55,092 nucleotides of DNA from a virus (IMGVR_UViG_3300044624_000829:1-55092), one strand, 5' to 3'. Counted from the stretch's first letter, positions 14,401-54,902 are shown. The notes: generated by a model not told the origin, from the letters alone. Numbers and translations are program-made.

Positions 14401-17400
14401 TACTTTATCTTCTGCTTTTGATACAATCCCTGTATCCGTTTCAGTAAAGGTATATATCATACCTGAACGACCAACTAAAATATTGTATCGTTTATTTGCA
14501 TCACTTCGCGTAGCATAAATTTGATAGTTGCCTTGCGGTGTAATCTTAACTTTATCAATAGTAATTGTTACTTTAGCTTCTGTACCCCTATCACCTATTA
14601 TAGCTTCAAATTCTACACCTACAATATTATTAATATTGTTAGCCCATCCATTTTCAGAATACGTATCATTAATAAGTTGTTCTAATACAGTACGAGAATT
14701 TTCCGTTATTGTTACTTCTTCTCCTAAATGATTTATAAAAGTTGTAGTATAACGTAAGTTACGATCAATAAAAACCTCTTGAATGTTATCTAAAGCCCTT
14801 TGATTTGCATCATTTAATTCTTTGATAGCTTCAGCACTAAGCATTAAAGGTTTTGCTTCATCATTTTCTTCCTCATCTTCTTCCTCTGTAGTTTCTGTTA
14901 CAGCAGGTGCAGGTTGCTTATTTGCATTCCTATTATATTCTCCAATAATATTAATAAAAGACGTAGTAGGCATTAAGTCTTGTATCTCTTGTATCTGCTC
15001 GTCAGTTAAATAATCCAAAGCTTTTTCATCTCCTTGTAAAGCCAATAGATTAAACCCTCTAAAAACTGCTTCCTTAAATGCTACAGCATCGTCTTCTGAT
15101 ACCTTTTTTAAAAAACCTTGTACATTATCAGGTATATCTTTCTCATCCCTAGCTTGTAATTCTTGTAACTTCTCAATAGAAATAAGGGGAGCTTTACCTT
15201 TATTATTATTAAGATAAAACGCAGCTAACTTTAATTGAAGGTCTAACGGTAAATTTATAAATTCTGAACGGCTAGTGACAACTTGATTACTATCATCGTC
15301 CTCTTCATTTAACACAGGAGTTTTCAAATCAGGCTTTGCTCCAGTTGGAGTTTCTGTAACTGACTTTTCTTTTTGCTCAATACTCTTTAATTCTTTTATT
15401 AAAGTATCTACTTCTTTTTGTATAGCCAGCTTTTGTTTCTCTAGTTGTCCTATACGTCTAAACTTTAATCTACTTGTTCTATTAATCTCTGAGTTAATAC
15501 CATTTACATCTTGCTGTAATTTTTTAATTTTTAAATTAATTACTTTCTTTCTATCAGCTAATTCATTTAAATTAACAGGTACAGGTGCCGGCTCTTCAGT
15601 TACTTGTTCTTCTTCTACTTCTTCTTCCGGAGGTACGTTTGCTACGGGTGCAGTTTCTTCACCTTCCATTTCTTCAGGAGTAGGCTCTTCATCTTCTTCT
15701 ACCTCATCAGTTTCATCAGTTTCTTGTATAGGACCGCTTTCAGCAGTGTCTTCTATTATAGCTTCATCAATACTTAGTTGAGTTATACCCAGTATAGAAT
15801 CTAATAAAGATCCTTTAATACCATTTGCCCCTAATTCATCACGTAATTCATTATTTAAATTTCTCCATAATGATTCTTGGTTGACATCTGTTGAATTAAC
15901 AGTAGATGCTAAAAAATTTTGAAAGTTTATATTAGCATAAGCTTCTGTTAAAAATACCAAAGGATTATTAAAAATGTCAGAAGTTTCAGCTTGCGCTATT
16001 TCCATGCGTTTCTGCTGATCATCCTTATTGCTATTGTTAATGTTGTTAATGTGAGAAGTCTTTGCTAAATCCATTAACGTGGTAATGTTATTTTTTAACT
16101 CTTCATCAACTTGAAAACGTTTAACAAATACATTTTGTACAATTCCAGAAATAGCAATATACTCAAATGGCGTAGCTCTAAGTGCACGCACACCTTGATC
16201 ATATTGAGATTCTGTAATTTTATTTGAATTAACAGCTTTATCTAATTCAGCAATACTAGAATACTTTACTCCATTTATTTCATAATTAGCTCTAGCAAAA
16301 TCAAATGCCCCAAACCTTACATCTAATACCAGATCGCCATTTTCATTAAACGATACAGGACTTTCTGCTTCATCTGTAAGAATTACATTTCCGCTTAGTA
16401 TTTGATTTGTTATATGATACTCTTGTAACTTTTCTAATATGCGAATTTCAGATTTAGATAAATATCTATTTCCATAAGCCATCATATTATTTACAAAGTC
16501 TATAATAGGAACAGGAACGCCTTTATTTTTAGCTCCTACATATTGTTTAATTATTGTAGCTGCTCTACGTTTATCTGTTTTAGATTTATCTCTTGTTGCT
16601 CTTACACCAGTTTTAGCCCCTATAAGTTTTTTACCTTTAAGCTTTTTGTAATACTTTTCAATTATTTTAACTGCTTGTTTATACTTTTCGGCACTAATCT
16701 CTTCTTTACTATTAACATCAAATAATGTAGAAGGCATTACACCTTTATCGTACAAATCATCTAGTTCATCTAATTCAAAGATGATTCCATTTTCTAATAA
16801 CTCATTAAGCATATCATCTGATACTTCACGAGTTTGCCATGCTTCAATAGCTTTTTCTATATAAGCTTTTTTGTTTTTACCAAATTCAACAAGCATTTCT
16901 CTATTGGCACGTAACCATTGTGAACTATATTCCGGATTACTTAAAAGATCTGCATAGTATTCTAACTCTTTTGATTCTTCATCTAATCTGTAAAAATCAA
17001 ATAAAGAAGCAAAACGTCTTTTATATCTTTGATACAAATTTTTATCACTTGCTAACGCACTTGCATCTGGCATACTATTTAATTCAGTATTTACAGCAAG
17101 CATATATCTAGCAAATGCATCTTCCATGGCATCACGTTCTTTTTGAACAGAAGTAGCGTTAGATCTATCAAATTTAGGATCATTAAATTTTGTTAAAGAT
17201 TCTTGTAATGATTTTAAAGCGTCTAGCTTAATTACAAGTTGTTGATGTTCTCTAGTATTATCTAATTTATACTCTTTGTTGCTTTCAACTTGAGTAGTTA
17301 ACATATCTATTTGTTGCGCTAAATCTGATTCATTAGTAAGAGCTACAACATCTAAATCCGTAAGTTTAGTATTCTTTTTTAAATCAGATTTGATATTTTC

Positions 17401-19566
17401 TTTACGTTGAGATAAATTTCTAACCTTATCTCCTGTAAACAACATTTCTTCTTTTAACTCATCCCAAGCTAATATATCAAGTACAGCTTCTTGTTTTTCT
17501 TCTGGACTTAATCTATCATTTCTAAAAACTGCATCAACGTTACCTTTTGAAGGCATTTCCTCTTCAATGCGGTCATATTCTTCTTTTAATTTTAAAATAT
17601 CTTTTTTACGCTGTTTGATCTTATCGTAATATTCTTGTTTGTTTTCTTCAGTAATATCTATTCTATCTAAAGATTCATTTAATTCTTTTGCTGAATGTTT
17701 AAGCATTTGATCTAAATGGTCTACTAATTCTCCATGCATCCCTGTTTTAAACATTGACCGCATACCTAACCTAAAGATTTCTGCTTTATTATCCTCAAAG
17801 AATTTTTGATCACCATTACGAGCAGCTTCTAGCATTTTTTCACGTAGTCCAGTCATTCGGTGTACAGGACTAGTGATATCTACTTCTAATGCTATACCTT
17901 GCTTTTTACTAATTTCCGTTAAAAACTCTGCTGTTTTTTGACGTTCTTCTAAAAGATTCTTATAATTCTTTTTTCCTTCTTTCGTCCATGCATTATATTC
18001 AGAACCAAAGCCTCTTTCTCCAAAACTATATTCACTAACAACCTTAGTAGCAAAGTTTACAGGAGAAGCAAAGATACCCATAAGGGCGCCAGACATAAAA
18101 GTTTCAATATTACTATCTCCCATAGAATTAGCCACCTGACTCCAATACGCACCTCGGCTCATATCAGATGTAGGATCTGTAATCATTTTACCATAGATAG
18201 GTATTTTTTTACCTTCTCCGTTTAATACAGGTTTGCCAAATACATCTTTTTCGTAACCTTTTATTTCAAACTTTATATCTCCATATTTTTTAGCGGCAGA
18301 TGAAATAATATCTTGTCCATATTCTTGAACACCTTCCATACTTGCTCTTACCGTACCGCCAATAACATTACCAAGTGTTAGTTCGGATGCTTTCTTTTTA
18401 ATATAATTTTTAACTGTAGGTGTAACAGCATTAAACGCAATACTTCTACTTCCTTTTCCAGCTACACTAAAATTATCAACCATACCAAATAATTTATTGG
18501 TAGGAGAAAATCCTTTTAATAAACCTTCAAAGGTTATGGCATTGGTAAGATAGATTAATCCAAAGTTTGTTTCATAAGCTCTATCGTAAGCTTTTTGCGC
18601 TTTTATATCAATAAAATTTTTAACACTTTCCGGCATTGATTGTCCGGGATTAGCTCTATTCCATTTTGCAATAGCATCCGTTGTAAGTTCATCTCTTACA
18701 AATTTTGCTTCAAGATCTGATTCTGAATGAGACATGTAAAATTTACGAGCATCACGGGCAATAGAACCAGCCCCCAAAAGAGTTTTTTGCAATCCATTAA
18801 AATCTTTTATTTTATCTGCACTACGTATAAAGTCTAATGTATTACCTAAAGGCATTAAAGCTTTACCAAATCCTCCAACACCTCGGCTAAGAGAACCTAC
18901 AGCTCCCATTCCAACAGCTCCTGCATCTTTAGCTTCTTTATACCATCGGGCATTATCAATGTTTTTCATCCATCCAAAAACACCAACGGTATTATCTACA
19001 CCTTTTAAAGTTTTATTTGCTTTGCCTAATAATGATGCACCTCGAGCAACTTCAGCACCCATTGCTGGAACTGTAGCTCCACTTAATAATCCGCCTGATA
19101 ATGCTGTTGCGCCCGCTAATAATAATTCTTCAGCAGCAATAGATGAAATAATTCCTACAGTATATCCCGCAGATAACATAGTGTTTGCAAAAAACCCGGA
19201 AACACCACCACGCTGTGAACCATAATCTTGCATAATTTTGCCAAAATCTTTATGGTTTTCAGAACTACCAAAAGCACCAAAACCAAAAGTATCAGACATA
19301 CCTACGCCTGCAAGTTTTGTCATGCCGGTAAACCCTCTAGATATATCTTTAGTCCAAGATGTAGCTTGCTGGTATTTTTTTTCATTATTGCCAAAAGGAT
19401 TATAACCTAATTGACCATATACCTTACTACCGTAAGTTAAATATCTATCAGCTCCTTCTGCTTCAAAAGAAAATGTTTTACCTGCATTTGTAAACTGATT
19501 AAAATCAGTACTACTATTTTTTGCTATTTCATCTAATGATAAAACTGGTTTTGTAGGATCTGCCAT
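11407..19566 (-). CDS. Giant internal virion (cargo/ejection) protein, 2719 aa
   Basis: Long ORF directly upstream of the RNAP gene; N-terminal Gly/Ala-rich hydrophobic segments, coiled coils, acidic linkers, degenerate zincin-like region. Function inferred from crAss-like synteny. Confidence 0.75.
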   Translation of the reverse strand: MADPTKPVLSLDEIAKNSSTDFNQFTNAGKTFSFEAEGADRYLTYGSKVYGQLGYNPFGNNEKKYQQATSWTKDISRGFTGMTKLAGVGMSDTFGFGAFGSSENHKDFGKIMQDYGSQRGGVSGFFANTMLSAGYTVGIISSIAAEELLLAGATALSGGLLSGATVPAMGAEVARGASLLGKANKTLKGVDNTVGVFGWMKNIDNARWYKEAKDAGAVGMGAVGSLSRGVGGFGKALMPLGNTLDFIRSADKIKDFNGLQKTLLGAGSIARDARKFYMSHSESDLEAKFVRDELTTDAIAKWNRANPGQSMPESVKNFIDIKAQKAYDRAYETNFGLIYLTNAITFEGLLKGFSPTNKLFGMVDNFSVAGKGSRSIAFNAVTPTVKNYIKKKASELTLGNVIGGTVRASMEGVQEYGQDIISSAAKKYGDIKFEIKGYEKDVFGKPVLNGEGKKIPIYGKMITDPTSDMSRGAYWSQVANSMGDSNIETFMSGALMGIFASPVNFATKVVSEYSFGERGFGSEYNAWTKEGKKNYKNLLEERQKTAEFLTEISKKQGIALEVDITSPVHRMTGLREKMLEAARNGDQKFFEDNKAEIFRLGMRSMFKTGMHGELVDHLDQMLKHSAKELNESLDRIDITEENKQEYYDKIKQRKKDILKLKEEYDRIEEEMPSKGNVDAVFRNDRLSPEEKQEAVLDILAWDELKEEMLFTGDKVRNLSQRKENIKSDLKKNTKLTDLDVVALTNESDLAQQIDMLTTQVESNKEYKLDNTREHQQLVIKLDALKSLQESLTKFNDPKFDRSNATSVQKERDAMEDAFARYMLAVNTELNSMPDASALASDKNLYQRYKRRFASLFDFYRLDEESKELEYYADLLSNPEYSSQWLRANREMLVEFGKNKKAYIEKAIEAWQTREVSDDMLNELLENGIIFELDELDDLYDKGVMPSTLFDVNSKEEISAEKYKQAVKIIEKYYKKLKGKKLIGAKTGVRATRDKSKTDKRRAATIIKQYVGAKNKGVPVPIIDFVNNMMAYGNRYLSKSEIRILEKLQEYHITNQILSGNVILTDEAESPVSFNENGDLVLDVRFGAFDFARANYEINGVKYSSIAELDKAVNSNKITESQYDQGVRALRATPFEYIAISGIVQNVFVKRFQVDEELKNNITTLMDLAKTSHINNINNSNKDDQQKRMEIAQAETSDIFNNPLVFLTEAYANINFQNFLASTVNSTDVNQESLWRNLNNELRDELGANGIKGSLLDSILGITQLSIDEAIIEDTAESGPIQETDETDEVEEDEEPTPEEMEGEETAPVANVPPEEEVEEEQVTEEPAPVPVNLNELADRKKVINLKIKKLQQDVNGINSEINRTSRLKFRRIGQLEKQKLAIQKEVDTLIKELKSIEQKEKSVTETPTGAKPDLKTPVLNEEDDDSNQVVTSRSEFINLPLDLQLKLAAFYLNNNKGKAPLISIEKLQELQARDEKDIPDNVQGFLKKVSEDDAVAFKEAVFRGFNLLALQGDEKALDYLTDEQIQEIQDLMPTTSFINIIGEYNRNANKQPAPAVTETTEEEDEEENDEAKPLMLSAEAIKELNDANQRALDNIQEVFIDRNLRYTTTFINHLGEEVTITENSRTVLEQLINDTYSENGWANNINNIVGVEFEAIIGDRGTEAKVTITIDKVKITPQGNYQIYATRSDANKRYNILVGRSGMIYTFTETDTGIVSKAEDKVNYIVDFTTKASIVPFDPNRKEPKIEYTSPIQSVEDIQSVYPDIDLTTVFTTEQLNEFATELANATSIEEFKKLAEAFDQTLFDITEGFTDGLTFDIPVAEVKNPSSIDTSEITRMNQETETKLKEEGVDDLFIGATLPTGSAENAIPVTVDVINGIAVATYANEKTGLIDTVISGFSEENFVGYYRIYENGKPTNKWSSKFENKETGNAEVDNKKKENFKTMMSSVQERLPSDHKYTEKTSISTDGLRIWGNQIDRNTYQLEYDENGNLITDRVSINGDAIVNELGIDLNQDAFQNTNVKTPNIKVKTQEEFEKVKAALLPYLQKFGLNENNIYWKKPTGPVAQTGSVVQIDLPVLSPVNKSKSTTTSSFTTPIDFSTLGTLKTEDQLKQSSGVPADEFDEVTSNVKYNWNYLDTSKHNYEGTNKGYASRFSTWSINKRDLAYLRNFQISLFGLEHLDFVDAVLKYLSNGSRLAETVSKFNVKNKSVTQVEDYVRTQLNNAANNRAITSELVNALNKKLNAVRSNLTIAWSESKRKVGNYGITTKTQAQIDTMQQQQDKLDTKSTKLSRKEQALLVDTGNDVRALVLKWFIKGGKINSSVIQKLLGNTKSLKGPKSIKAESAARMSILNNTTGVTLDGLAHIIWENRTEAMNFDTEDAKKEVVDVILRFGGISKMIDELINTYGQPEIETEETEEEKRNREFKEAEEQEAYEYNQILNAYWESEGSNVNQIYLDFEATTLGQILNGTYQGTREDLANDVERRAYDEIYKDTTKKPDVEEDVEEEDFVPKTAIDPIVKKVREYDVNTISGMNPAQKVGTMFNLITANSKFEDLVYIYLSLYNTSTAYSDNQKNAVIRSIKYRLASFSNQIFSPSRTIKINEFQSSTDVVPAGVYEITPINTNTDQRVLFGLRNQLTNEIFQVEGITELFPSIADIYEPGSTLNTNPIDLSLNNNDVEIIKASFTDFFSNFNNIMSDVDKDLNEEDLRSQIAEQFKTCK

Positions 19567-29860: not shown

Positions 29861-29998
29861 TTATTTGGCCTTATTCTTATTTTTCATTTTAACCGGCGGT
29901 TTTTTATTAGCTTTAGCATTTATATCTTTAAAGATATCTTTATTACCGGTCTTAACTTTAGCTGGCGTAGTGTAATACGCATCTCTATTTAAACTCAT
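29861..29998 (-). CDS. Small Lys-rich protein, 45 aa (not in ORF track)
   Basis: ATGA overlap with the muzzle gene stop; MSLNRDAYYTTPAKVKTGNKDIFKDINAKANKKPPVKMKNKNKAK*; fills an otherwise empty gap. Confidence 0.65.
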   Translation of the reverse strand: MSLNRDAYYTTPAKVKTGNKDIFKDINAKANKKPPVKMKNKNKAK

Positions 29999-32900
29999 CG
30001 TTCTGAAGGTTGAAGTTTAGTATTATTTAAGAACATTAACATTTTATTATTGCCTGAAACAACACGTCTTAAAATTACTCTATTATTATTATGTCTTAAT
30101 TTTTTACGTTGAAATTCCGCTTTAGAATAATTAAGATTGACAGGGTTAAGGTTTTTGATATAACCGTTAGGTTCAGTAATCCATATTGAATTCTGCGCTA
30201 ATGTAAATTCTCCACGATCTTTTGTAATATCCCAAAACTGATTAAATCTATACTTGTGTTCTTCTTTAGAATACACTATATCAATTTGGTTTAATCCAAC
30301 AATAGGATATTGCATTAAAGCTAATACGTTATTTTTAGGAGCATTGTTTAATTTTAATAATCCGCTTACTTGTTCTGAATTATATAAAATAGCTTCATCA
30401 AAATTAAAATCTAAGACATGGTATCTATCTCTACAGTTATCACTAAATCTAAATACTTGTAAATAGTATTCTACATTTCGTATAGTAGTAATAGAAGGAG
30501 TATTATCTATTTGAAATTCTAATTCAAAAGGATAATCTACATTGTAATAATTACAATACAAATCACAACGCACGTTATGTTTCCATATTGTTTGATTCTT
30601 AGTTGTCAAAAATGTATTTGTAGCACCTATAGTTAAATCAGGATGCCAGTCATGCCATGAAATAAAGTTTTGAGATTTAGGATCAAAACTCATTGTCCAT
30701 GAGGCATTATCAAAATAACGAGAATCTCCAGTTTTAACTTGTGCTATACCATCAACTAAAAAATTACCATTACCTATATACTCTATTCGTGATAACCATT
30801 CAGGTTTAACTTTAAAATCTTTTTTACAGAAATAAAGAATAGCCCATTCATTATCATAAATAGATTGACAACCTATACCAACAACAGGATTATCTATTAA
30901 ATCATATGTTGGAAAATCTAAAAGTAATTGATACGGTAAATACTGATTAATCCAAAACGAATTAGCTTTTAAAGAAATTTCAGTTAATGATCCGGCTACA
31001 CCAAATATTTTTCCTTGATCTAAAGACATATAATACACGCCCGCAGGAGTATTAATTACACTACGTCTGCTTTGACATGAACCGTATTGATATTCTTTAT
31101 CTACATTAGAAAGAGCTTGCATATCTCTTAAAAACAATCCTCCATCGCCAACTGTAACAGATGTACCACTACGTAATTGCAATTCATCAACTCCCGGATA
31201 AATACCCGGAGAATCAGTTTCAAATAATAATAAAATACCTGTACGTTGAATTGCTTTAATAGCTGTAATCTTACTTGAAAAATCTTTGTAATTATTAGCT
31301 AAGAATACACTCCAATTATCTTTCTTTAATTCAGTTTGTTGCGGTAAAGAGTATAACAAACGTTTTGGAAATTCAGTATAACATGTTTCCGCTTTAGTAG
31401 GATTATAATCTCTATCTTGCATTTTTCCCCAACGTAATTTAGTTGCAGGATGTTGAGCTACAGATAATGATCTATCTAACGCGTAATAGTTTCCAGCGCG
31501 TATAATTTCAGTATCAAACATTTGTGGTAAATCTTGTAATACCGCCCAATGTCTTTGCGCTAATAATTCTCCGTAATCTCTATGATCAATATTTAATTCA
31601 GTTTCCACAAAGAAATCTCTAACACTTGAATGAAAAAGATACATGTATACATTCTTTAATGTAAAGAAACCTGTATTATTTAAACGATCAAAACAATGTT
31701 TATCTGAAGGTGTAACTATACTTGTAAATATATCTGTAGGGTTGCCTGATGTAAAAGCATCTGTAATTGCTTGACCAATACTATTTACAAATTCTCCAAT
31801 ATCAAATGGATCAGTATCCATCCAAAAAGCTTGATGTTGTACTGTATCATATAGATGATAATTCCATTCAGCTCTATCTGGTTGATCATATAACCATTGA
31901 TAAAAATGAAAGAATGTATTTTTCTCTTGATATCTACCTATATAAACATCACCTCCAAATATTGGGCCTGTAGTTGTTTCAGTAATATTAATAGGACAAT
32001 ATGTAGCTTGCAATTGGCGAATTCCTGTTAATTGACCATATTGATTACGCAATCTATTTTTAAAAGCTACATAATGACTAGAAGCTCTTCTATTAAATGT
32101 ATCAAATACATTATCGTTTCCTAAATCAGAAGCTTTCATATTTTTTAGCGTATCATCTTGTAATACACCTGTTAAATCTGTTACATCTGCTGATGTATCA
32201 AACGCAACTGTTTTAAAACGTACAATATTATTAATTCTATGAGTTATTCCATAATTTTGTAATTGACTATCTAAATAAACAGCTTCATTAATAAGTCGTC
32301 TTCTATTGTCATTGTAAGGAATTCCAAAATATTCATAACCACAATGCGCTACATATTGTAAGGCGAACTGTTTTACCTTACTAAAGTTTTGAATTAACTC
32401 AAGTGTTAAATTAGTACCTTCACCTAAATTTGTAGTAAACATTGGAACTGCTTGAAGAACTCGCAATACAGAAGGAGTTTGATTTTTATCTTCATAATAT
32501 ACTTCTGCACCATCCCATGTTACACCAGTTCCCGGAATAACATTTAAACCTGCACCTATATCTGCTGCAGTATTTAAAGTTGATTCAACTGTATCTACAC
32601 CTATTGCTGCACTAAGTAATCCGTTAACATTTTTATTTAAAGTTTCTGCTGCAGTAATAGATGTATCTCCGCCTTGCCATATTGCATATCCTGCAGCATT
32701 TAATCCAGGTACTGTAGTTGAACTACCAGCTACTAAGTCATAAGAATAATATGAAGGTCTTTTCATTTTAGTATTACGTTTACCCACTTGTTTAGCTATT
32801 GCTAAACCAATACCAAATAAAACACCTAGTATAAATGAAGCATCTGTTACAAATACATGTTTAGGATGTTTACGGGGATAACGATAATTACATTCAGCTA

Positions 32901-34872
32901 AACCGTATAATGCACCATAAATCTTTAATTCCTTTTGACTTAAAAAAGGTTTATTAAACATTGTATCGGGAGAATGAAATGTAAAATGTTTTTTGCTATA
33001 ATTTGGGTTAGGATTATAATCTTTTAATCCGCCTATAGTTTCATAAGATGTTTCAGTAGTTGAAGTAAAAGGATCTGGAAATAAACTATTAAAAGGATAA
33101 TTAGGATAAAGTCCTTGACGATTAACAGCAACATTATCAGGAATAGCATATTCCCTCATGTTATTAATCATTCCTTTGTACAATACTGTTTTATTGCCAA
33201 AACGAGATCCTCTTAATATTTCATATCCAGTAATGTTTGAAATTAAATTTCCATCGTTATCAGTAGGAGGAAGAATGTTTTCAAATGCTACAGCCATTAT
33301 GCGAATCTTTTTTTGATTATCCACATAATGATTAGAAATAGAACTTACACCTCCACCTGAATATAATGTATTTTCTGGAAATTTATGATGCCTAATTCGT
33401 TTACCGCAAAGATCTAACTCTGGTCTACCTAGAATATTTGAATTCCATATATCAGGATTTTTATCATCGTAAAATTCATCAGACTGCCAATAACCCATCA
33501 GACCTTCTGCTGTTACAACACCTCCATCCGGCAAAGGTATATTTACATTATATCCTAATGCTGTATTATACATTTCAAAAACATACGGAGTACCTCCTTG
33601 TAAGTTTTCAATATTGTTAGAATTAACTGGTAAGAATAAATCATCTTCATTTAATGTACCGTAACCATCAGGCGTAAGATATGGTAAAGGTCCTCTTCCC
33701 GGTATATGATAACTATTTGACTTATCTCCTGTATTATATACAAAACGAATAAAGTATGAATATACTTCATCACGCATATGTCCTACATTAACACCACCAT
33801 CACGATAATAGTCTTCAGGATATTCTACAACTTGCCACTTTGTTACAATTTGATTAGCTAACGGTTGATAGTTAAAATCAAATTTTCCTATTACATCTGT
33901 ACGAAATAAATATTTACCAACATTGAATATTCCACCTGATTTATCAGCAATAGGATTAGTTATAGGTAATTTATTTACATCAACTGCCGGTAACGCAGGA
34001 TCTACATAATCAATAGTGACTTGATTTTGATTTGTACTATATGTACCTATCTTATAAGCTGTAAGTTTTTCAGCAATAAACTGAACTAAAACTAATTCGT
34101 ATTCATCAAAGTTTTCATCTAAATTATCTATAGTTATATCTAGTGAAAAATTTAAATTGTCGTGTTCAAACAAACTTAAAAAGTTAGACATAGCAAAGTA
34201 ATCAGTTACTCTTTGGCTATCTATAACATAGGCTATTTGAACATAATAAGTTCCATTAAATATAGTACCTCCTGAAGGCCCTCGTTCTACTTTAACGCAA
34301 GGTTGTTTAATAATAGACTCTAATAGTATTTTATCACAATCTAATTCATCTGTATCAACACATGTAATACAACCACCTGGATCTTCTCCATTATCGTCTG
34401 TACAAATTTGAACCCATGGTACATCTTGAATATCTAAAGTTCTATCTGGATTTAATTTATCTTGCCAATATATTCTATATGAACAATCAAATGTTGATCG
34501 AGATGCTCCCGTAATTAAATAGCTTGTATGAAAATTTAAACATGGATCGTTTACTATTTTTTCATATGTGCATTTTTCTTCATCAAAAGTTCCTATTTCA
34601 GAATTTACATTATCTGTTGAAAATAATACCCATTGTGAATTTGTTAAATGAATAACTCCAATAATGGTATACGGAGCTGCTGTACAAAATAAATTTGCCG
34701 GCTCATTACCCATTTCACCTAAATCTCCAATATGCGTATTATTAATTGCATTACGCGCATTAGTAATTGATTGTGTATCTAAATGATAATCTCGTAAATC
34801 AGTTACTAAACCTTTATCAAACGCGTTTGTTGATTGAGGTATCGTTAATTGTTTTTTTCTCTTCTTTGCCAT
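29995..34872 (-). CDS. Tail stabilization / muzzle protein (P22 gp10-like in crAss annotations), 1625 aa
   Basis: N-terminal FDKGLVTD...NARNA..., MRDEVYSYFIRF, YQYGSCQS, WTMSFDP...FISWHDW; size and position after the ring-protein genes. Confidence 0.75.
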   Translation of the reverse strand: MAKKRKKQLTIPQSTNAFDKGLVTDLRDYHLDTQSITNARNAINNTHIGDLGEMGNEPANLFCTAAPYTIIGVIHLTNSQWVLFSTDNVNSEIGTFDEEKCTYEKIVNDPCLNFHTSYLITGASRSTFDCSYRIYWQDKLNPDRTLDIQDVPWVQICTDDNGEDPGGCITCVDTDELDCDKILLESIIKQPCVKVERGPSGGTIFNGTYYVQIAYVIDSQRVTDYFAMSNFLSLFEHDNLNFSLDITIDNLDENFDEYELVLVQFIAEKLTAYKIGTYSTNQNQVTIDYVDPALPAVDVNKLPITNPIADKSGGIFNVGKYLFRTDVIGKFDFNYQPLANQIVTKWQVVEYPEDYYRDGGVNVGHMRDEVYSYFIRFVYNTGDKSNSYHIPGRGPLPYLTPDGYGTLNEDDLFLPVNSNNIENLQGGTPYVFEMYNTALGYNVNIPLPDGGVVTAEGLMGYWQSDEFYDDKNPDIWNSNILGRPELDLCGKRIRHHKFPENTLYSGGGVSSISNHYVDNQKKIRIMAVAFENILPPTDNDGNLISNITGYEILRGSRFGNKTVLYKGMINNMREYAIPDNVAVNRQGLYPNYPFNSLFPDPFTSTTETSYETIGGLKDYNPNPNYSKKHFTFHSPDTMFNKPFLSQKELKIYGALYGLAECNYRYPRKHPKHVFVTDASFILGVLFGIGLAIAKQVGKRNTKMKRPSYYSYDLVAGSSTTVPGLNAAGYAIWQGGDTSITAAETLNKNVNGLLSAAIGVDTVESTLNTAADIGAGLNVIPGTGVTWDGAEVYYEDKNQTPSVLRVLQAVPMFTTNLGEGTNLTLELIQNFSKVKQFALQYVAHCGYEYFGIPYNDNRRRLINEAVYLDSQLQNYGITHRINNIVRFKTVAFDTSADVTDLTGVLQDDTLKNMKASDLGNDNVFDTFNRRASSHYVAFKNRLRNQYGQLTGIRQLQATYCPINITETTTGPIFGGDVYIGRYQEKNTFFHFYQWLYDQPDRAEWNYHLYDTVQHQAFWMDTDPFDIGEFVNSIGQAITDAFTSGNPTDIFTSIVTPSDKHCFDRLNNTGFFTLKNVYMYLFHSSVRDFFVETELNIDHRDYGELLAQRHWAVLQDLPQMFDTEIIRAGNYYALDRSLSVAQHPATKLRWGKMQDRDYNPTKAETCYTEFPKRLLYSLPQQTELKKDNWSVFLANNYKDFSSKITAIKAIQRTGILLLFETDSPGIYPGVDELQLRSGTSVTVGDGGLFLRDMQALSNVDKEYQYGSCQSRRSVINTPAGVYYMSLDQGKIFGVAGSLTEISLKANSFWINQYLPYQLLLDFPTYDLIDNPVVGIGCQSIYDNEWAILYFCKKDFKVKPEWLSRIEYIGNGNFLVDGIAQVKTGDSRYFDNASWTMSFDPKSQNFISWHDWHPDLTIGATNTFLTTKNQTIWKHNVRCDLYCNYYNVDYPFELEFQIDNTPSITTIRNVEYYLQVFRFSDNCRDRYHVLDFNFDEAILYNSEQVSGLLKLNNAPKNNVLALMQYPIVGLNQIDIVYSKEEHKYRFNQFWDITKDRGEFTLAQNSIWITEPNGYIKNLNPVNLNYSKAEFQRKKLRHNNNRVILRRVVSGNNKMLMFLNNTKLQPSER

Positions 34873-36997: not shown

Positions 36998-37007
36998 AGT
37001 ATTTAAT

Positions 37008-37036
37008 AATATACGGATTTTTTAGGAGACTTACAA
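37008..37036 (-). promoter_or_regulatory. Candidate promoter TTGTAA-N17-TATATT
   Basis: TTGTAA-N15-CGTATATTATTA, same boxes and spacing as 41165-41193; lies just downstream of a terminator. Confidence 0.55.
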
Positions 37037-37057
37037 TGTCTTCTAGTAAAGATAGAT

Positions 37058-37098
37058 AAATAAAATAAACCCTAGCTGATTTCTCAACTAGGGCTTTT
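37058..37098 (-). terminator. Intrinsic terminator ending the fibre gene cluster
   Basis: AGCCCTAGTTGA-GAAA-TCAGCTAGGGTT hairpin followed by a T-rich tract; a short T run on the other side suggests it may be bidirectional. Confidence 0.8.
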
Positions 37099-37135
37099 GT
37101 CAGTCACAAAGAAACCAACCAACTGTGACATTTTA
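37058..37135 (-). ncRNA. Candidate 3'UTR-derived small RNA (GUUGGUUGGUUUCU-loop hairpin + terminator)
   Basis: GTCACAG-TTGGTTGGTTTCT-TTGTGAC hairpin (37129-37103) directly before the terminator; loop complementary to the AAAAACCAAC leader motif. Expression is inferred, not shown. Confidence 0.35.
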
Positions 37136-37140
37136 AATAT

Positions 37141-37761
37141 TTAAAGGCAGCCAACAAGATAAAGAAAATATGTGTCAGATGCTTTAGTACCTTCTGAATC
37201 AGTAACTACAACTTTAGCCATTCCTGCTCGTCCTGTATTAGAAGAAGAGCAAGCATCAAAAACATTTATTATAGCCGGATTTGCTGAAGGTAATACTTTT
37301 GCGGGATTTGTAGGATCAAGTGGATCAACACCTAATTGCCACATAGAAACTCCGCCACCAAATGTCCAATCAGCCATATACCAAGTATATGTATATGGTG
37401 CTCTACCACCAGTTACATTTGCTTCTAATCCTCGAACACTAGGTGATATTTCAACATAAAGAGGAATTGCTGATATTGTTACTGTAGTTAGATTACTTGT
37501 AACACTTATACCATCACCTTCTACTATTGATTTAGTAAATAAAGCTGGCCCAACGCCATCGTTTACAATTGATTCACCGGTTCCCACTGAACCTAAAGTA
37601 ACATCGTTACCTGATCCCGTTGATCCTTGTGGACCTTGTGGACCAACTACGCCTTGTGGACCTTGTGGACCTGCAGGACCTTGTTCTCCTTGTAAACCTC
37701 TTAATCCACGTTCTCCTCTTTTTGGAACGCAATCATCACACTTTTTACATTTAGTTGCCAT
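37141..37761 (-). CDS. Collagen-repeat fibre protein, 206 aa
   Basis: CKKCDDC N-terminus, about 12 G-X-Y triplets, a fibre repeat shared with the 468 aa protein, Ig/PKD-like C-terminus ([12 protein letters not shown]...VVVTDSEG). Confidence 0.8.
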
Positions 37762-42028: not shown

Positions 42029-42175
42029 TTATTTATTTTGAGAACTTTTTGTTTTTAAATTAGCCTCATAAGTAGTGACACAACTTTTACAACAATGTTT
42101 ACCATCAGAGGCAACACGTTTTTGACATCCGCAACTTATACCTTTTCCACAATTACCACATTTTTGATTTGACAT
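42029..42175 (-). CDS. Small Cys-rich putative metal-binding protein, 48 aa (not in ORF track)
   Basis: MSNQKCGNCGKGISCGCQKRVASDGKHCCKSCVTTYEANLKTKSSQNK*; 7 Cys; preceded by the AAAAACCAAC leader; fills the gap between neighbours. Confidence 0.8.
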   Translation of the reverse strand: MSNQKCGNCGKGISCGCQKRVASDGKHCCKSCVTTYEANLKTKSSQNK

Positions 42176-42187
42176 ACAGGTTGGTTT

Positions 42188-45237: not shown

Positions 45238-46245
45238 TTAAAACCAAGTCTCTTCAACCTTTTCTTGAAGAATAACTAATACATCTTCATTCATTGGATT
45301 AATCAAATATTCGTATACTTCAGAAGCATTACGTCCCAGCAATACATTTTCTGGAGTTAAATATAGTAACCCATCTCCTTTCAAAATAATAAACTTATAG
45401 AATGTTGCATCCTTAATCATTGCGCGAACTTTAAGTTCTTGCATATCCAATTCTGTATAATCTATAAATTGTTGCGCTGCTTTACGTATGCTAGATTCAT
45501 TAGCAAGACCATTAATAAATTCATCCATGTTATCATAGATTACGTCTTGCAATGTAGAATTTTTGTATTGCATGCTATTAGTAGAAATCAACTTAGCTAT
45601 GTAGAATAATTTACGCGGCATTTCATCAGAAATAGAATCTAATAGTGCCGCTGCTTTATTCTTAATCTTACTAACAGATGCTTTATTTTGTGCAGTATCA
45701 ATCTGACGATCTAAATACCATTTTCTTTTATGTAATCCGGAAATACAATCTTCTTTGCTTTTTGCAATAATAGGAAAACCTCCAGCTTCAATAGCTAAAA
45801 CTTTTAGTAGATCTTCTGTTTTATTTACAGGATCTAAAAAGATAACATTGTTAGCAACTTCTAACATAATAGTTCCCCAAAATTCAGAATTGTTTGGTTT
45901 GTACGTTTGCACCTTATTCCAAAAATCTGTATCTTCTATATCTAGGGTATTATAATGTTTTTCAAATTCTAACATTGCTACAATAGAACGTATTTCTTTA
46001 ATCTTTGCGTTTCTTTTTTCAGAATCAGCTATACCTTTTACTTCTGGTGCTGCTTCATCTAATCCGTTAAGATATCTTATTTTACCGTTTTGCTCTATAC
46101 AAGCCATAGGCTCTCTTTGAGCAGTACCAGGAAATAAAACCATGTCATATGTTTCCAAGCCCATGTTTTCTTTTCTTGGATCGCAGTAAGGTCTGATAGT
46201 CATCCTGCCTGCGTTCTGATAACGTTCTTTAATTTTTTCAATCAT
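45238..46245 (-). CDS. Hypothetical protein following the major capsid gene, 335 aa
   Basis: ORF track; position corresponds to the conserved post-capsid gene of crAss-like phages. Confidence 0.6.
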   Translation of the reverse strand: MIEKIKERYQNAGRMTIRPYCDPRKENMGLETYDMVLFPGTAQREPMACIEQNGKIRYLNGLDEAAPEVKGIADSEKRNAKIKEIRSIVAMLEFEKHYNTLDIEDTDFWNKVQTYKPNNSEFWGTIMLEVANNVIFLDPVNKTEDLLKVLAIEAGGFPIIAKSKEDCISGLHKRKWYLDRQIDTAQNKASVSKIKNKAAALLDSISDEMPRKLFYIAKLISTNSMQYKNSTLQDVIYDNMDEFINGLANESSIRKAAQQFIDYTELDMQELKVRAMIKDATFYKFIILKGDGLLYLTPENVLLGRNASEVYEYLINPMNEDVLVILQEKVEETWF

Positions 46246-46275
46246 TTTGTTGGTTTTTATGTGATAGACAAATTT

Positions 46276-46309
46276 AAAAAAACTCCCCGATATATTTTAC
46301 CGGGGAGTT
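46276..46309 (-). terminator. Intrinsic terminator after the major capsid gene
   Basis: AACTCCCCGG-TAAAATATA-TCGGGGAGTT followed by TTTTT. Confidence 0.88.
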
Positions 46310-47965: not shown

Positions 47966-49249
47966 TCAATCTCTAGAAAATATATTCCTAGAATTTTTGT
48001 TTTTGTTTCGTTGAAGAGTGTTCCTTGATGGAGCATTTCTCTCTTCCCCTTGTTTGGATGATGAAGTCATACGTTCACCTTCTGCTGTTTTTAAACTTCT
48101 ATAGGTTTTAGCAGCTGCTTGTTGTTGTCCTACTGACAAAACTGACTCTCTATAACCATTAGGATCTTTTAATAACCATAGTGCCTCCAATAGGACAGAC
48201 GGATTAGCTTCTTTACCAAACTGGTACTTCTCCAAAAGATATCCTAATTCATTTGTAGGATTACCTTCTCTATCCTGATAATGCCCGGTATCAGTTAGAC
48301 CGTAATACAATGCTGTCTGTATTCTATTATTTAAACGTAAACCATTCAAATGATTTTTATTTAAAACATTAAATATGTTTTCAGCATAACTTTGTTTAGC
48401 TATTTCAGCATCTTTTCGTTTTTGTTCTTGCTCTACAAGTTGCTTTTCCATAATCTCCGCCTGCTTCTTATCAAGCTTCGGTTTAAATTGAGCAGCTTTT
48501 TTTGCCAAATTGTTACTGTCAATATACGTAGTTATCTCATCTTCAATCTCTTCATCTGAATAACTACCTAGTTGACGTAACCATTCGCGTACAATTCTTT
48601 CTTGATGGTCATCATTATCTAAACTAAGATCAGTTATCTCTTGAGCTCTAGCAACGTTTTTTAATACATTAGATATATCCGTTCCTCCATTCAAAGCATA
48701 AGATATAACATCTTGTAACTTTGGATCTAACTTGCCAAATATTTCTAAAGGAGCTTGCTTTGCTACTTCATTTATTTTAGCAATCATATTAGTTTCAATC
48801 AACTCTTCAATATCATCTAACGTGTAGCTAGATATATCAGCATTGTCTTCAAATAAATCTAATAAGCCTTTCTTTGATAACTTATCAATTACCTCAACAA
48901 GTCCAGGTTTACGTCCTACCTTATTTGCTGAACGTTGATTAGCTGAAGAATCTTCTTGTGAATCATCCTCATCCTCATCACTGATATCTTGATCTAATAT
49001 ATTAGATAAAGCATCCTTTGTTTTAGGTGTTGCTGTATTAGATGTACTTTGCGGAGTAGGATTACTATCATCACTATTCTCTGTATCATCATCCATATTG
49101 TCAAGGAACGAAGTGTCTACATCAGTATTTTCAAGTACAGACCTTTTTGATTCCTCCGTAGGTGCAATTACAGTTGCTGCTTTTGTACCTAGTAGATCAT
49201 CCATGTCTTGGAACTCTACTTCTTTTGCTGTAGTGTTTTCTTTTGTCAT
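47966..49249 (-). CDS. Acidic scaffold-like head assembly protein, 427 aa
   Basis: Asp/Glu-rich N-terminus, coiled coil, basic C-terminus; located between portal and capsid. Confidence 0.6.
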   Translation of the reverse strand: MTKENTTAKEVEFQDMDDLLGTKAATVIAPTEESKRSVLENTDVDTSFLDNMDDDTENSDDSNPTPQSTSNTATPKTKDALSNILDQDISDEDEDDSQEDSSANQRSANKVGRKPGLVEVIDKLSKKGLLDLFEDNADISSYTLDDIEELIETNMIAKINEVAKQAPLEIFGKLDPKLQDVISYALNGGTDISNVLKNVARAQEITDLSLDNDDHQERIVREWLRQLGSYSDEEIEDEITTYIDSNNLAKKAAQFKPKLDKKQAEIMEKQLVEQEQKRKDAEIAKQSYAENIFNVLNKNHLNGLRLNNRIQTALYYGLTDTGHYQDREGNPTNELGYLLEKYQFGKEANPSVLLEALWLLKDPNGYRESVLSVGQQQAAAKTYRSLKTAEGERMTSSSKQGEERNAPSRNTLQRNKNKNSRNIFSRD

Positions 49250-49280
49250 AAGTGTTGGTTTTTTGTTTTTGACTTAATAT

Positions 49281-49309
49281 AATTTAATAATAATCTTTGC
49301 AATAAACAA
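49281..49309 (-). promoter_or_regulatory. Candidate promoter TTGTTT-N17-TAAATT(ATATT) for scaffold-capsid
   Basis: Same geometry as the other three sites, but in very AT-rich sequence. Confidence 0.35.
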
Positions 49310-52155: not shown

Positions 52156-54387
52156 TTATTTAAGTCTTCTAAACGGGTTTCTATTTTTTTTCATATCTAA
52201 ACCTATATTAGATCTACCTATGTTTTTAAACGGTACACCCTTATTTAATTTATAAATTTTATCTGAATTTTGCAAGTGTTCGTTATCTATACTTTCAATT
52301 CTTTTCTTTGGACCTTTGTTAGCAATTTGCAATTTAACAAATGCTATAAGGGCCGAAAGAGAAATTAAACGGTCAACGTTAAGTCCATGTTCATACTGAC
52401 GCATTTCTTCTAAAGCCATAGTATCAGGTATTCTCTCAATACCATAAACCACTTTAATAACGTTACCTGTATCATCTGTTTCCTCATAAATCTTTTCTTT
52501 TAAAGATTCAATAAGATAAGTTAATAAATTATTTGCAAATATAGTTCCTGTATTTTTCCAACCATATTCTTGATGGCTACTATTATTAAACCCATGTTCT
52601 TTTAGAAAGATCATTTCTGACTTTGGTACAAGATAACGTTGTAATCTATGATGTATCATATACAAGATAAATAAAGATACGTTGGCTTCCACTAACGTCC
52701 ATGCATTATACCATTTAATAATTAACTCCAATCGTTTATGTGTATCGTTAATATCATCAAATCTGCCAGCCCACGCACAGACAATTTTATCTCCTTCAAT
52801 AAAAGTCTGAGCTTTACCATGTTCAAATCTTTGTACTTGTACCGGTGTTTTGTAAACGTAAATAGAACATAAAGATTCAGAAGATGTAGTTTTACCTTCC
52901 GATACGGGATCTATAGAAGCATAATAGATACCCCATTCTGGTTTTTCCATTGGTCTTTCCCATACTACAATAGAGCCAGTTTTATCTATCATCTTTTTAT
53001 CTACAGGAAAATCTCGTATAGGTGGTTTTGTAGTTAACTTTACATCTATTGAACCATCTATTTTTTCTGATAGGTTGATTAACTCAAAAGGATATTTTCC
53101 ATCATCAACTTCTAGTTTGTGTGTATCAACAAGTGCCAAAGGAAAACGTGATTCAGTTCTTGCAGCAAAAGCTACTTGCATGTTAATAGGCCTCTGCGAT
53201 TTACGGATTTGACATGTTTCAGGTTCAAGATCGCGTTCCCATTCAGCATACAATTCTAATAATCTTTCGGTAGCTTCTTTAACTTGTGAATTACCGTAAG
53301 CATCAATAAAAGGCGGCATTGAATATTGCTCTGGTACAAACAAACCTGTTTCTTGAATATTATCTTTCCAATTAACCCATTTGTTTCTAATTGTATAAAA
53401 GCCGTTAGCTTTAGCTTTATACATGTAAGTTCTTAACGGTTTGCATTGATCAAGATCCCCCACAGTTCCGGCAGCAACAAAAAATCCTGTAGTTATATCT
53501 CCCGCTTGCATTGCTGGTAATAAAAATTCTAATGTTTTATCCATACGTGGAGCAATACCTGCTTCTTCATAAAAAAACATAGTTGTTAAACCCCCTACAC
53601 CGGCTGTATCTGATTGCTGAAAAGATATAGATTGTAATGTTCCCATTAAACCTACATCATATTTTTTACCTCCCTCTGTTACTTCTTGTTTTTGCACCCA
53701 TTCGCCAACAGTACCTGGATTCATTTCTCTTGTCCATGCTGTATGTTTATTAAGATGCGTTTTATACATTTGAGCAAACTTCCATGAACCATTTACTCCT
53801 GTAAGATAAGCTTCTAGAGATCCTCCTATTTTTAACACTGGCGCATCTTCAAACCATAGTAGATTTATAAGTTTAGCTACATGATACAAAGAAGATCCAA
53901 ACTGACGTTTCTTTAAAACTACTCCATGAAGATACTTTAACTCTGCAATAAACTCATATAAGTCCATCCAAATTTGAGTATCCCATATATCATTAAGCCT
54001 TCGTGTTTTTTTTACTTTATCTATAATTGGAAGAAAGTTAATCCAGAAGTAATAGTATCGAGTTAAATAATATTTATTTTCTCCTTTCCAATAAAATACA
54101 CCTTTGCGTGATTTTAATTTTTCAAAATCCCAATAATCTTCAAAATCTAAAGTTCCTTCTAAATAATCACAATAATAATCGTCTTGTTCAAATTTTATTG
54201 CTTGTTTTTTAAACTCAAGGATAATATCATCTAAATTATATTCTCCAGGTTCTTTAAAATATTCATCTTCTAATGTTGCGGCAAACTCTTCTCGTGAATT
54301 AAAAGATATTAATTTCCATGTACCGTTATCCCAACAAGGAATATTTTCGTATACATCACCTAACTGTTTAGAATTATACTGTATCAT
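52156..54387 (-). CDS. terL: Terminase large subunit, 743 aa
   Basis: Walker A-like LKKRQFGSS, Walker B FFYEEAG, coupling motif GTVG, nuclease YASIDPV and NVDRL. Confidence 0.93.
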   Translation of the reverse strand: MIQYNSKQLGDVYENIPCWDNGTWKLISFNSREEFAATLEDEYFKEPGEYNLDDIILEFKKQAIKFEQDDYYCDYLEGTLDFEDYWDFEKLKSRKGVFYWKGENKYYLTRYYYFWINFLPIIDKVKKTRRLNDIWDTQIWMDLYEFIAELKYLHGVVLKKRQFGSSLYHVAKLINLLWFEDAPVLKIGGSLEAYLTGVNGSWKFAQMYKTHLNKHTAWTREMNPGTVGEWVQKQEVTEGGKKYDVGLMGTLQSISFQQSDTAGVGGLTTMFFYEEAGIAPRMDKTLEFLLPAMQAGDITTGFFVAAGTVGDLDQCKPLRTYMYKAKANGFYTIRNKWVNWKDNIQETGLFVPEQYSMPPFIDAYGNSQVKEATERLLELYAEWERDLEPETCQIRKSQRPINMQVAFAARTESRFPLALVDTHKLEVDDGKYPFELINLSEKIDGSIDVKLTTKPPIRDFPVDKKMIDKTGSIVVWERPMEKPEWGIYYASIDPVSEGKTTSSESLCSIYVYKTPVQVQRFEHGKAQTFIEGDKIVCAWAGRFDDINDTHKRLELIIKWYNAWTLVEANVSLFILYMIHHRLQRYLVPKSEMIFLKEHGFNNSSHQEYGWKNTGTIFANNLLTYLIESLKEKIYEETDDTGNVIKVVYGIERIPDTMALEEMRQYEHGLNVDRLISLSALIAFVKLQIANKGPKKRIESIDNEHLQNSDKIYKLNKGVPFKNIGRSNIGLDMKKNRNPFRRLK

Positions 54388-54902
54388 TATCTAAGATCAT
54401 AAGGTAATTTAGAACTTCCCCGGGCTTTTACTTTATTTTCTTCTTGAACATCTTCATAAACTCCTTTAAAAGACTCTCTAACACTTTTAAATTCTTTTGC
54501 TACTCTTAATAATGCACCAATGTTTCCATCTCTACCATCTGTAATTTCTGTATGTTTTAAATATGTGTTTAGATTTTCTAGCATTGTTTTAATAGCATCA
54601 TAGGATCTCATTGTAGGTGTCATAAACAAATCTTTGCATCTATCAATAGCATGTAAGATAGCAGGCGATTCTACATTAAATTCGGGTTGTAAATCTTTAA
54701 GTATTTTTTCTTCTCTATCTACTTCTGATATATTAAAATAAGGATTATCTGGTCCTAAATAACTCATGTAGTATATGTAAGCAAAAACTTTTACATGATC
54801 TTCCGGATGTTCATCAATAATTTTTTTTAACCAACTAATCATATAGCAATGTTCTGTTGGTTTAACGGTTCTTCCGTCTAGTTCAAATAATCTAATGTGC
54901 AT
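54387..54902 (-). CDS. Helical protein upstream of terL, possible terminase small subunit, 171 aa
   Basis: TAATG overlap with terL; size and position. The ORF is solid, the function is inferred. Confidence 0.5.
   Translation of the reverse strand: MHIRLFELDGRTVKPTEHCYMISWLKKIIDEHPEDHVKVFAYIYYMSYLGPDNPYFNISEVDREEKILKDLQPEFNVESPAILHAIDRCKDLFMTPTMRSYDAIKTMLENLNTYLKHTEITDGRDGNIGALLRVAKEFKSVRESFKGVYEDVQEENKVKARGSSKLPYDLR

Follow-up and report, generated by a model that had tools for sequence, protein, structure and literature searches.

A conserved hairpin in the 3'UTR of a tail-fibre gene of crAss-like phages exposes a loop complementary to a start-region motif of phage genes and may belong to an antisense RNA

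The window, by which we mean the whole 55,092-nt stretch of DNA that was analysed, is a 55-kb virus record of IMG/VR (IMGVR_UViG_3300044624_000829, ~46% complete, 32% G+C). Its minus strand carries all the large genes, and the features located below lie on that strand. Judging by its gene content, the window phage is crAss-like. A 223-aa and a 313-aa protein matched the Pfam families CrAss_Ring_2 (E = 1.5e-19) and CrAss_Ring_1 (E = 9.2e-07, 29.0 bits vs a cut-off of 27), respectively, and the portal and the major head protein were assigned by PHROG. Three giant ORFs accompany them, one of >3800 aa that runs off the window end (3-11405), one of 2719 aa (11407-19566) and one of 1625 aa (29995-34872), the last with weak PHROG "virion structural protein" matches only. 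By their size and context, they would be typical virion-packaged proteins of crAss-like phages, in which the giant virion proteins include an RNA polymerase. The start regions of the window genes have no Shine-Dalgarno sequence and are A/C-rich, and leaders made of A and C only are found in many genes with high expression, such as that of the capsid.

Near-identical DNA was present in 24 sequencing-run matches, all of them DNA-type lake or marine metagenomes. The DNA comparison with GenBank phages returned nothing beyond short collagen-repeat matches, and the search with the fibre protein as query found no relatives. The clade to which the phage belongs counts at least 527 capsid relatives and comprises several hundred uncultured genomes; its nearest isolate, Leptolyngbya phage Lbo-JY46, has a capsid protein 28.8% identical. 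Sixteen capsid-bearing contigs of the clade (L274-L289), some of them 115-120 kb and near full length, had been binned into MAGs labelled Fluviibacter, Pseudomonadales, Clostridium, Rickettsiales, Campylobacteraceae, Bacteroidales, Bacteroidia, Chitinophagaceae, Bacilli, Patescibacteria and others. As these labels span many unrelated phyla, we have rejected host assignment from the bins as binning noise, and no host is therefore proposed for the window phage. The spread of one phage clade over MAGs of unrelated phyla is in itself a warning on host assignment from bins.

The gene that precedes the feature under study encodes a 206-aa collagen-like tail-fibre protein (37141-37761, stop codon 37143-37141), recognised by PHROG tail-fibre families and Pfam Collagen. 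Its 3'UTR is occupied by a hairpin and an intrinsic terminator. The hairpin lies 12 nt past the stop codon of this last fibre gene and has a 7-bp stem, formed by the 5' arm GUCACAG (37123-37129) and the 3' arm UUGUGAC (37103-37109). The stem closes a 13-nt G/U loop, UUGGUUGGUUUCU (37110-37122), which is unpaired in the centroid fold and contains the conserved core GUUGGUUU, the proposed seed. A single-stranded spacer, UGACAA (37097-37102), semi-conserved as [U/A][G/A]ACA in alignment columns 41-46, leads to the terminator, a stem-loop of 13 bp with a GAAA loop (37067-37096) that starts 6 nt past the hairpin and ends in a U-rich tail (37055-37066), where the RNA 3' end is expected. The sequence-only reading had described the pairing GUCACAG-loop-UUGUGAC after the last fibre gene and, just after it, a GAAA-capped terminator. 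Both were recovered, the hairpin in the MFE as well as the centroid fold and the terminator with its 13 bp (37096-37067) and its U-rich tail. The 86-nt unit of hairpin and terminator had a fold energy of -27.7 kcal/mol (z = -4.84).

No Rfam family, including GcvB, C4 and NsiR1, reached its gathering score anywhere in the window. The two best sub-threshold matches were put aside: His_leader on the opposite strand (29.4 vs 49 bits) was judged a chance match, and NsiR1, a cyanobacterial sRNA, over the terminator (37061-37109, minus strand, 20.1 vs 39 bits) probably is one. The NsiR1 match is mentioned since the nearest isolate infects a cyanobacterium. We have also considered two alternative pairings within the unit. 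A pseudoknot of UUUGUU in the loop with AACAAA in the spacer was rejected because the spacer varies while the loop does not, no loop-spacer covariation being visible by eye. An attenuator-type alternative pairing was dropped as well, no complementarity between a hairpin arm and a terminator arm being seen on reading the sequence.

Through an alignment of the ring-2 protein, we have gathered 80 related loci with 42-56% protein identity, and a covariance model, R1, was built from 40 copies of the hairpin. R1 matched 75/80 loci strongly, once each and on the gene strand, as it did the window (44.9 bits), and the hairpin of one further locus (L065) was recognised by eye, for a total of 76/80; the remaining four loci hold at most 1161 nt of DNA upstream of the ring gene. 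The complete 126.6-kb genome of one relative, G002, contained a single strong match (36.2 bits), all others scoring 18.3 bits or less. Among 61 distinct copies, 87.8% of the stem cells pair, vs 30-55% when the partner is slid, and the copies comprise 45 distinct stem-arm pairs. The covariation score was 0.567, compared with 0.06-0.12, and was reached by 0/500 shuffles, in an alignment that had been fitted to model R1 and so favours structure; an independent MAFFT alignment yielded five covarying stem pairs. The loop varies in length from 11 to 15 nt among the relatives, and GTTGGT is found in 60/61 and TTTGTTGGTTT in 39/61 of the distinct copies. The sequence-only reading had looked to covariation for a loop that is kept and a stem that changes in compensation, and this is what we have found: the loop core TTGGT is present in 61/61 copies, and all 7/7 stem pairs show changes on both sides. 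G-U pairs account for 46 of 419 stem cells (11%); as the opposite strand would have A-C mismatches in their place, it is the gene-sense RNA that folds in this way. On these results, the hairpin is real and conserved as an RNA structure.

The position of the hairpin is also shared. A terminator follows it in those relatives that were read, after a gap of 5-10 nt and at the border of two transcription units. The hairpin lies 2-12 nt past the preceding stop codon in 46 of the 56 copies with an assignable upstream ORF, the coding sequences upstream being unrelated to one another among the relatives. Most genomes have the hairpin without a conserved upstream promoter. Located right after a stop codon and mostly lacking a promoter of its own, the hairpin would have to be processed to yield a free small RNA.

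The motif complementary to the loop, AAACCAAC, has five minus-strand copies in the window. On both strands together there are six copies, vs 2.07 expected, and 1/100 shuffles reached six. Three copies sit within AAAAACCAAC, 3-4 nt before an ATG. They belong to a 427-aa post-portal gene (motif at 49254-49261, gap to the ATG 4 nt), a 335-aa post-capsid gene (46249-46256, gap 3 nt) and a 48-aa Cys-rich gene, where the motif, as AAACCAAC(C) (42180-42187, gap 4 nt), shares bases with the stop codon of a 185-aa gene. The proposal that the reverse complement of the loop stands before these three genes was exactly right, at positions 49254, 46249 and 42180. Judged within the window alone, the match between loop and leaders is only moderately unlikely as a coincidence. 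Elsewhere in the window (~54829-54863, minus strand), within a 171-aa ORF (54387-54902), AAACCAAC and GTTGGTT occur 20 nt apart and make up an inverted repeat of 7 bp without mismatch. With an in-frame ATG 13 nt past this AACCAAC, the true start of the 171-aa ORF may be 20 codons downstream.

The first of the three proposed targets, the 427-aa protein (47966-49249), is encoded in the portal-capsid interval and has no Pfam or PHROG match. Its structural model shows a disordered N-terminus and long helices (pLDDT 63). The name "scaffold" that it had been given is only compatible with its position and the mostly helical, partly disordered model. The second, of 335 aa (45238-46245), comes after the capsid gene and its terminator and has no family match. 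It was modelled at a pLDDT of 87.5 with no clear fold match, the fold search giving only a ~60-residue match to a RecA C-terminal domain (Z = 6.4) and common helical bundles. A profile comparison with PDB sequences, meant to identify the targets, returned nothing. Directly past the capsid gene lies a strong intrinsic terminator (46281-46309, minus strand) with 12 bp, 6 G-C pairs and a T-run; the leader of the 335-aa gene, with its AACCAAC, comes next, which suggests attenuated read-through past the capsid gene. The third target, the 48-aa Cys-rich protein (42029-42175), was recognised as an ORF with homologues (CxxC...CGCQ), whose leaders are mostly AACCAA(C/T). It belongs to a family of small proteins of 48-75 aa, found in the window and in loci L119-L198, with the pattern CxNC...CGCQ...C..C...YE. 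Judging from this pattern, the family looks like a zinc ribbon. Its gene always stands 3' of a ~185-aa gene and usually has an AACCAA leader.

We have then surveyed the leaders (-22 to -1) of 80 capsid-centred loci, with capsids 66-94% identical. AACCAAC was present in 107 of 818 distinct leaders, vs 3.6 expected, and this 29.7-fold enrichment was the highest among the 25 most frequent leader 7-mers. The spacing is also restricted, with 94/134 occurrences ending 3-6 nt before the ATG. The same orthologues are marked as in the window: the post-portal gene has AACCAAC in 64/78 loci (74/78 with a relaxed 6-mer) and the post-capsid gene in 48/53 (51/53 relaxed), as expected from the earlier suggestion that the leaders would be conserved together with the loop. 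The motif was absent from the leaders of the portal (0/78), the capsid (0/66), a ~232-aa gene (0/46) and a ~740-aa gene (0/55). When R1 was applied to the opposite strand, the leader sites were the next-best matches. With the relatives compared, the agreement between loop and leaders is, on these counts, much more than chance.

In the complete genome G002, AACCAA precedes 18 of 173 predicted genes (~10%), vs 1.28 expected, in both genome arms and in an orientation that agrees with the gene direction on each of them; tandem doublets of the motif also occur. Since the motif marks genes of both arms, the target set would be wider than three structural genes. Thus, of the circuit for three assembly genes that had been proposed, the three leaders stand, but the set was drawn too narrowly. 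AACCAAC may even be a wider or general translation signal of the phage, of which the hairpin RNA is not the primary reader. On the opposite arm of G002 (~36-90 kb), about ten of these 18 genes are small (66-149 aa) and have, in many cases, an extended leader, AACTAAAACCAAT(A/C)..., located 6-8 nt before the ATG. These leaders may represent a second promoter or leader class with the same AACCAA core. AACTAA is likewise enriched in leaders (17.9-fold).

The leaders also gave a view of the transcription units. Most distinct post-portal leaders contain, by eye, TATATTA, often as TTTG-TATATTA, ~10-20 nt upstream of AACCAAC. In the window, four intergenic (TTTG)TATATTA boxes were located 9-35 nt upstream of start codons. 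One stands before the post-portal gene (49275-49281), upstream of its AACCAAC leader, and one before a 167-aa gene (37007-37013), 9 nt from the ATG and at the start of the next transcription unit past the terminator. The other two precede the 185-aa gene (42763-42757) and a 163-aa gene (41170-41164). We regard the box as a candidate promoter of the clade, for late or middle transcription. As it lies upstream of AACCAAC, the leader motif is probably within a short 5'UTR and not itself a promoter element. From this layout, the hairpin and the terminator are predicted to end one transcription unit at the border of the next.

In four of the 61 copies (L092, L099, L102 and L104), a TATATTA box is found 18-20 nt upstream of the hairpin itself, which suggests a stand-alone RNA gene in these loci. 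They also carry a copy of AAACCAAC ~5 nt upstream of this box, ~20-45 nt from the hairpin; the promoter region of the putative RNA would therefore itself bear the target motif in this four-locus sub-lineage.

A more distant comparison was provided by four IMG/VR contigs that form a clade with Lbo-JY46, with capsids ~30% identical to those of the window clade. In three of the four contigs of this sister clade, a clear hairpin with the loop UUUUGUUGGUUUU precedes a terminator upstream of the ring gene, and their post-portal and post-capsid genes have AAAACCAA leaders. The fourth contig, with 29% G+C, shows UUUUUGGUUUUU without a convincing stem and the leader AAACCAAAAAA, which could be either a matched change of loop and leader or plain A+T drift. 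Lbo-JY46 itself has the GU-rich stretch UUUGUUGGUUG and then a terminator, with a weak A-U stem only, and its two canonical genes are without the leader motif. The hairpin of this cultured distant relative is a degenerate version.

We have investigated the pairing of loop and leaders by duplex energies and by covariation. The three duplexes of the window had energies of -13.1, -10.0 and -10.0 kcal/mol and ranked 1-3 of 27 window start regions, the best being that of the 48-aa gene leader (-13.1 kcal/mol over 9 bp). Duplexes of -10 kcal/mol or below were also obtained for 229 of 5505 (4%) 50-nt windows of the coding strand; duplexes of 8-9 bp are energetically unremarkable, and the ranking is not discriminating. 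Covariation between loop and leader could not be scored because both cores are invariant. At the flanking positions, none was found in the four contigs that hold both parts (8 leaders): just 5' of GUUGGUU the loop has A, G or U, and just 3' of AACCAAC the leader has A in 8/8.

The reading that we favour, with a confidence slightly above even, is that of a phage antisense RNA that acts in trans, occluding start regions and lowering translation. Functional RNA-RNA pairing, with all its forms taken together, is probable. It is preferred because we estimate that, if loop and motif were independent, the chance of an invariant loop 7-mer being the reverse complement of the top leader motif would be at most a few per cent, even with G/U and A/C as the only letters, and because the match is found in two deeply diverged clades. 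A small structured RNA of ~70-80 nt would be produced from the 3' end of the late virion-gene transcript, with the hairpin and its exposed G/U loop, a short spacer and the intrinsic terminator. It would be either the 3'UTR itself or a fragment released from it, with a promoter of its own probable in one sub-lineage. The loop, (U)UUGUUGGUUU, would pair over 8-11 bp with AAACCAAC(AAA), 3-6 nt upstream of the start codons of a defined set of phage genes, which in the window would be the post-portal scaffold-like gene, the post-capsid 335-aa gene and the 48-aa Cys-rich gene. Since the leaders have no Shine-Dalgarno sequence and are A/C-rich and unstructured, a duplex that spans -4 to -13 would mask the place where the ribosome lands, with reduced translation as the most likely result. 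Repression in trans is the most likely form because the pairing would cover the landing site of a Shine-Dalgarno-independent ribosome. The RNA would act as a late-made feedback or timer. That it accumulates, that it pairs with the leaders, that the effect is negative and that it is exerted in trans and not within one long mRNA is what we infer from the sequence.

The same loop could be read by a protein. In that case, the hairpin would bind a phage or host RNA-binding protein, or a terminator read-through factor comparable to lambda N at boxB, with read-through into the ring-protein and giant-protein genes; the leader motif would be an independent translation signal, and the complementarity a by-product of G/U-rich vs A/C-rich composition. 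Hairpins recognised by proteins likewise combine an invariant loop with a stem that covaries freely, the location 5-10 nt before a strong terminator at a transcription-unit border would suit such a factor, and the four contigs gave no intermolecular covariation. Leaders made of A and C only also narrow the sequence space in which a chance complement has to arise. We nevertheless consider this explanation unlikely. It has to accept that the loop core matches, as an exact reverse complement, the leader 7-mer with the top, 29.7-fold enrichment, for which we estimate a chance of a few per cent even within two-letter alphabets, and that the match recurs in two clades whose capsids are ~30% identical. 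Moreover, on reading the sequence, the arm complementarity between hairpin and terminator that an attenuator needs is missing, and PHROG and Pfam gave no candidate binding protein among the window proteins. A protein-bound or antitermination hairpin would explain the loop and the terminator, but not the complementarity.

Pairing could also be real and take another form than repression in trans. It might occur in cis, between the 3' end of the late mRNA and its own leaders, or it might be positive, protecting or activating the mRNAs, for example by blocking a nuclease site or by opening a structure. The hairpin is located in the 3'UTR of a multi-gene unit that contains the three leaders on the same strand, usually with no promoter of its own, and the direction of the effect cannot be told from sequence. 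Yet the leaders are 5-12 kb away from the hairpin, and the capsid terminator (46309-46281) divides the unit; in G002, the motif also precedes genes of the opposite arm, which cannot share the transcript of the hairpin. As to a positive effect, the leaders are A/C-rich and predicted to be unstructured, which leaves little to open. We hold these variants to be unlikely as well.

The possibility that AAACCAAC acts as DNA, being either a promoter element or a binding site in double-stranded DNA that a phage polymerase or transcription factor would use (sense-oriented before genes, inverted once) or, in a variant, that the hairpin is an N4-type single-stranded DNA promoter for a virion RNA polymerase, would agree with the giant ORFs of the window (1625, 2719 and >3800 aa) and the crAss-like virion RNA polymerase, with the motif following gene direction on both arms and, for a double-stranded binding site, with the complementarity itself, but it is very unlikely: with 11% of its cells G-U, the stem is better suited to RNA than to a hairpin or cruciform of DNA, each genome has a single copy, with an 11-15-nt loop and immediately followed by a terminator, the post-portal motif lies downstream of a -10-like box and 3-6 nt from the ATG, the motif forms tandem doublets in G002, and a covarying G-U stem that always places the site in the loop is left without explanation. 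N4-type promoters occur in several copies before early genes and have a short stem and a 3-nt loop; with its single copy per genome, its 11-15-nt loop, its terminator and its G-U pairs, the hairpin was rejected as one of them.

An antisense RNA of the kind that we favour would have several known counterparts. Base-pairing sRNAs derived from 3'UTRs are known in enterobacteria (CpxQ, DapZ, SroC and MicL type). As in these, the hairpin is located between a stop codon and the mRNA's own terminator, its seed is short, conserved and predicted to be accessible in a single strand, and the complementarity to several start regions is conserved, so that by its features it would qualify as a 3'UTR-derived sRNA. 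Unlike the enterobacterial sRNAs, it would be encoded by a phage, of the virulent-type crAss-like group, would target the phage's own genes and would have its seed in a hairpin loop; the CpxQ-type sRNAs have no sequence or Rfam relationship to it.

GcvB is a chromosomal, Hfq-dependent RNA of ~200 nt with a linear seed. Its G/U-rich region has been described as silencing C/A-rich (ACA) translation-enhancing elements (PMC3879156), which would resemble the G/U seed set against a C/A element just upstream of many starts in the phage, where the target element may likewise enhance translation. The phage RNA differs from GcvB in its putative size of ~75 nt, its loop seed and its target leaders without Shine-Dalgarno sequence, and no Rfam GcvB match was obtained. 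Among phage RNAs, the c4 antisense RNA of P1 is, by analogy, the closest. The c4 RNA of P1/P7 acts within one immunity operon of a temperate phage, has two loops and is released by RNase P, and Rfam has a C4 family. Like c4, the candidate would be a phage RNA from the operon of its target whose loop pairs with the ribosome-binding region of phage genes; unlike c4, it has a single loop, several dispersed targets and a virion-gene context. The lambda boxB hairpin, with its 5-nt loop read by the N protein, lies near a promoter and upstream of terminators. The nut sites share with the phage hairpin the small size, the sequence-specific loop and a place near terminators at a transcription-unit boundary, but the complementarity of loop and leaders has no counterpart there. 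No N-like protein was recognised among the proteins of the window, which is about half of the genome, and no boxA was found there.

Literature searches on small or antisense RNAs of crAss-like phages and Crassvirales found no RNA regulator described, and those on AACCAAC phage leaders and on Lbo-JY46 found neither the hairpin nor the motif. A term search of a 2025 review of phage sRNAs gave no mention of crAss or Bacteroid*, and the phage S21 paper (PMC9723584) was dropped as a source for the leader motif, since the term search counted 0 uses of "motif" or "UTR".

The evidence from both arms of G002 allows a broader version of the antisense reading, which we put forward as doubtful. AACCAAC would be a phage-private translation-start signal, carried by about a tenth of the genes on both arms, and the hairpin RNA its dedicated trans-acting switch. 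The RNA would be made only after transcription has reached the end of the late virion operon and would work as a timer, re-programming which phage mRNAs are loaded by the Shine-Dalgarno-independent host ribosome.

In samples from the gut and the environment, crAss-like phages belong to the most abundant phages. To our knowledge, little is known about the post-transcriptional control of gene expression in them. If the loop pairs with the leaders, the phage would encode a multi-target antisense RNA that acts on its own assembly genes in a translation system independent of Shine-Dalgarno sequences, and several hundred uncultured genomes would share it. The RNA of ~75 nt and the 8-nt leader tag form a compact and easily testable pair. 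If the RNA also served as the timer of a phage-private start signal, it would represent a virus-encoded, multi-target post-transcriptional regulon in crAss-like phages.
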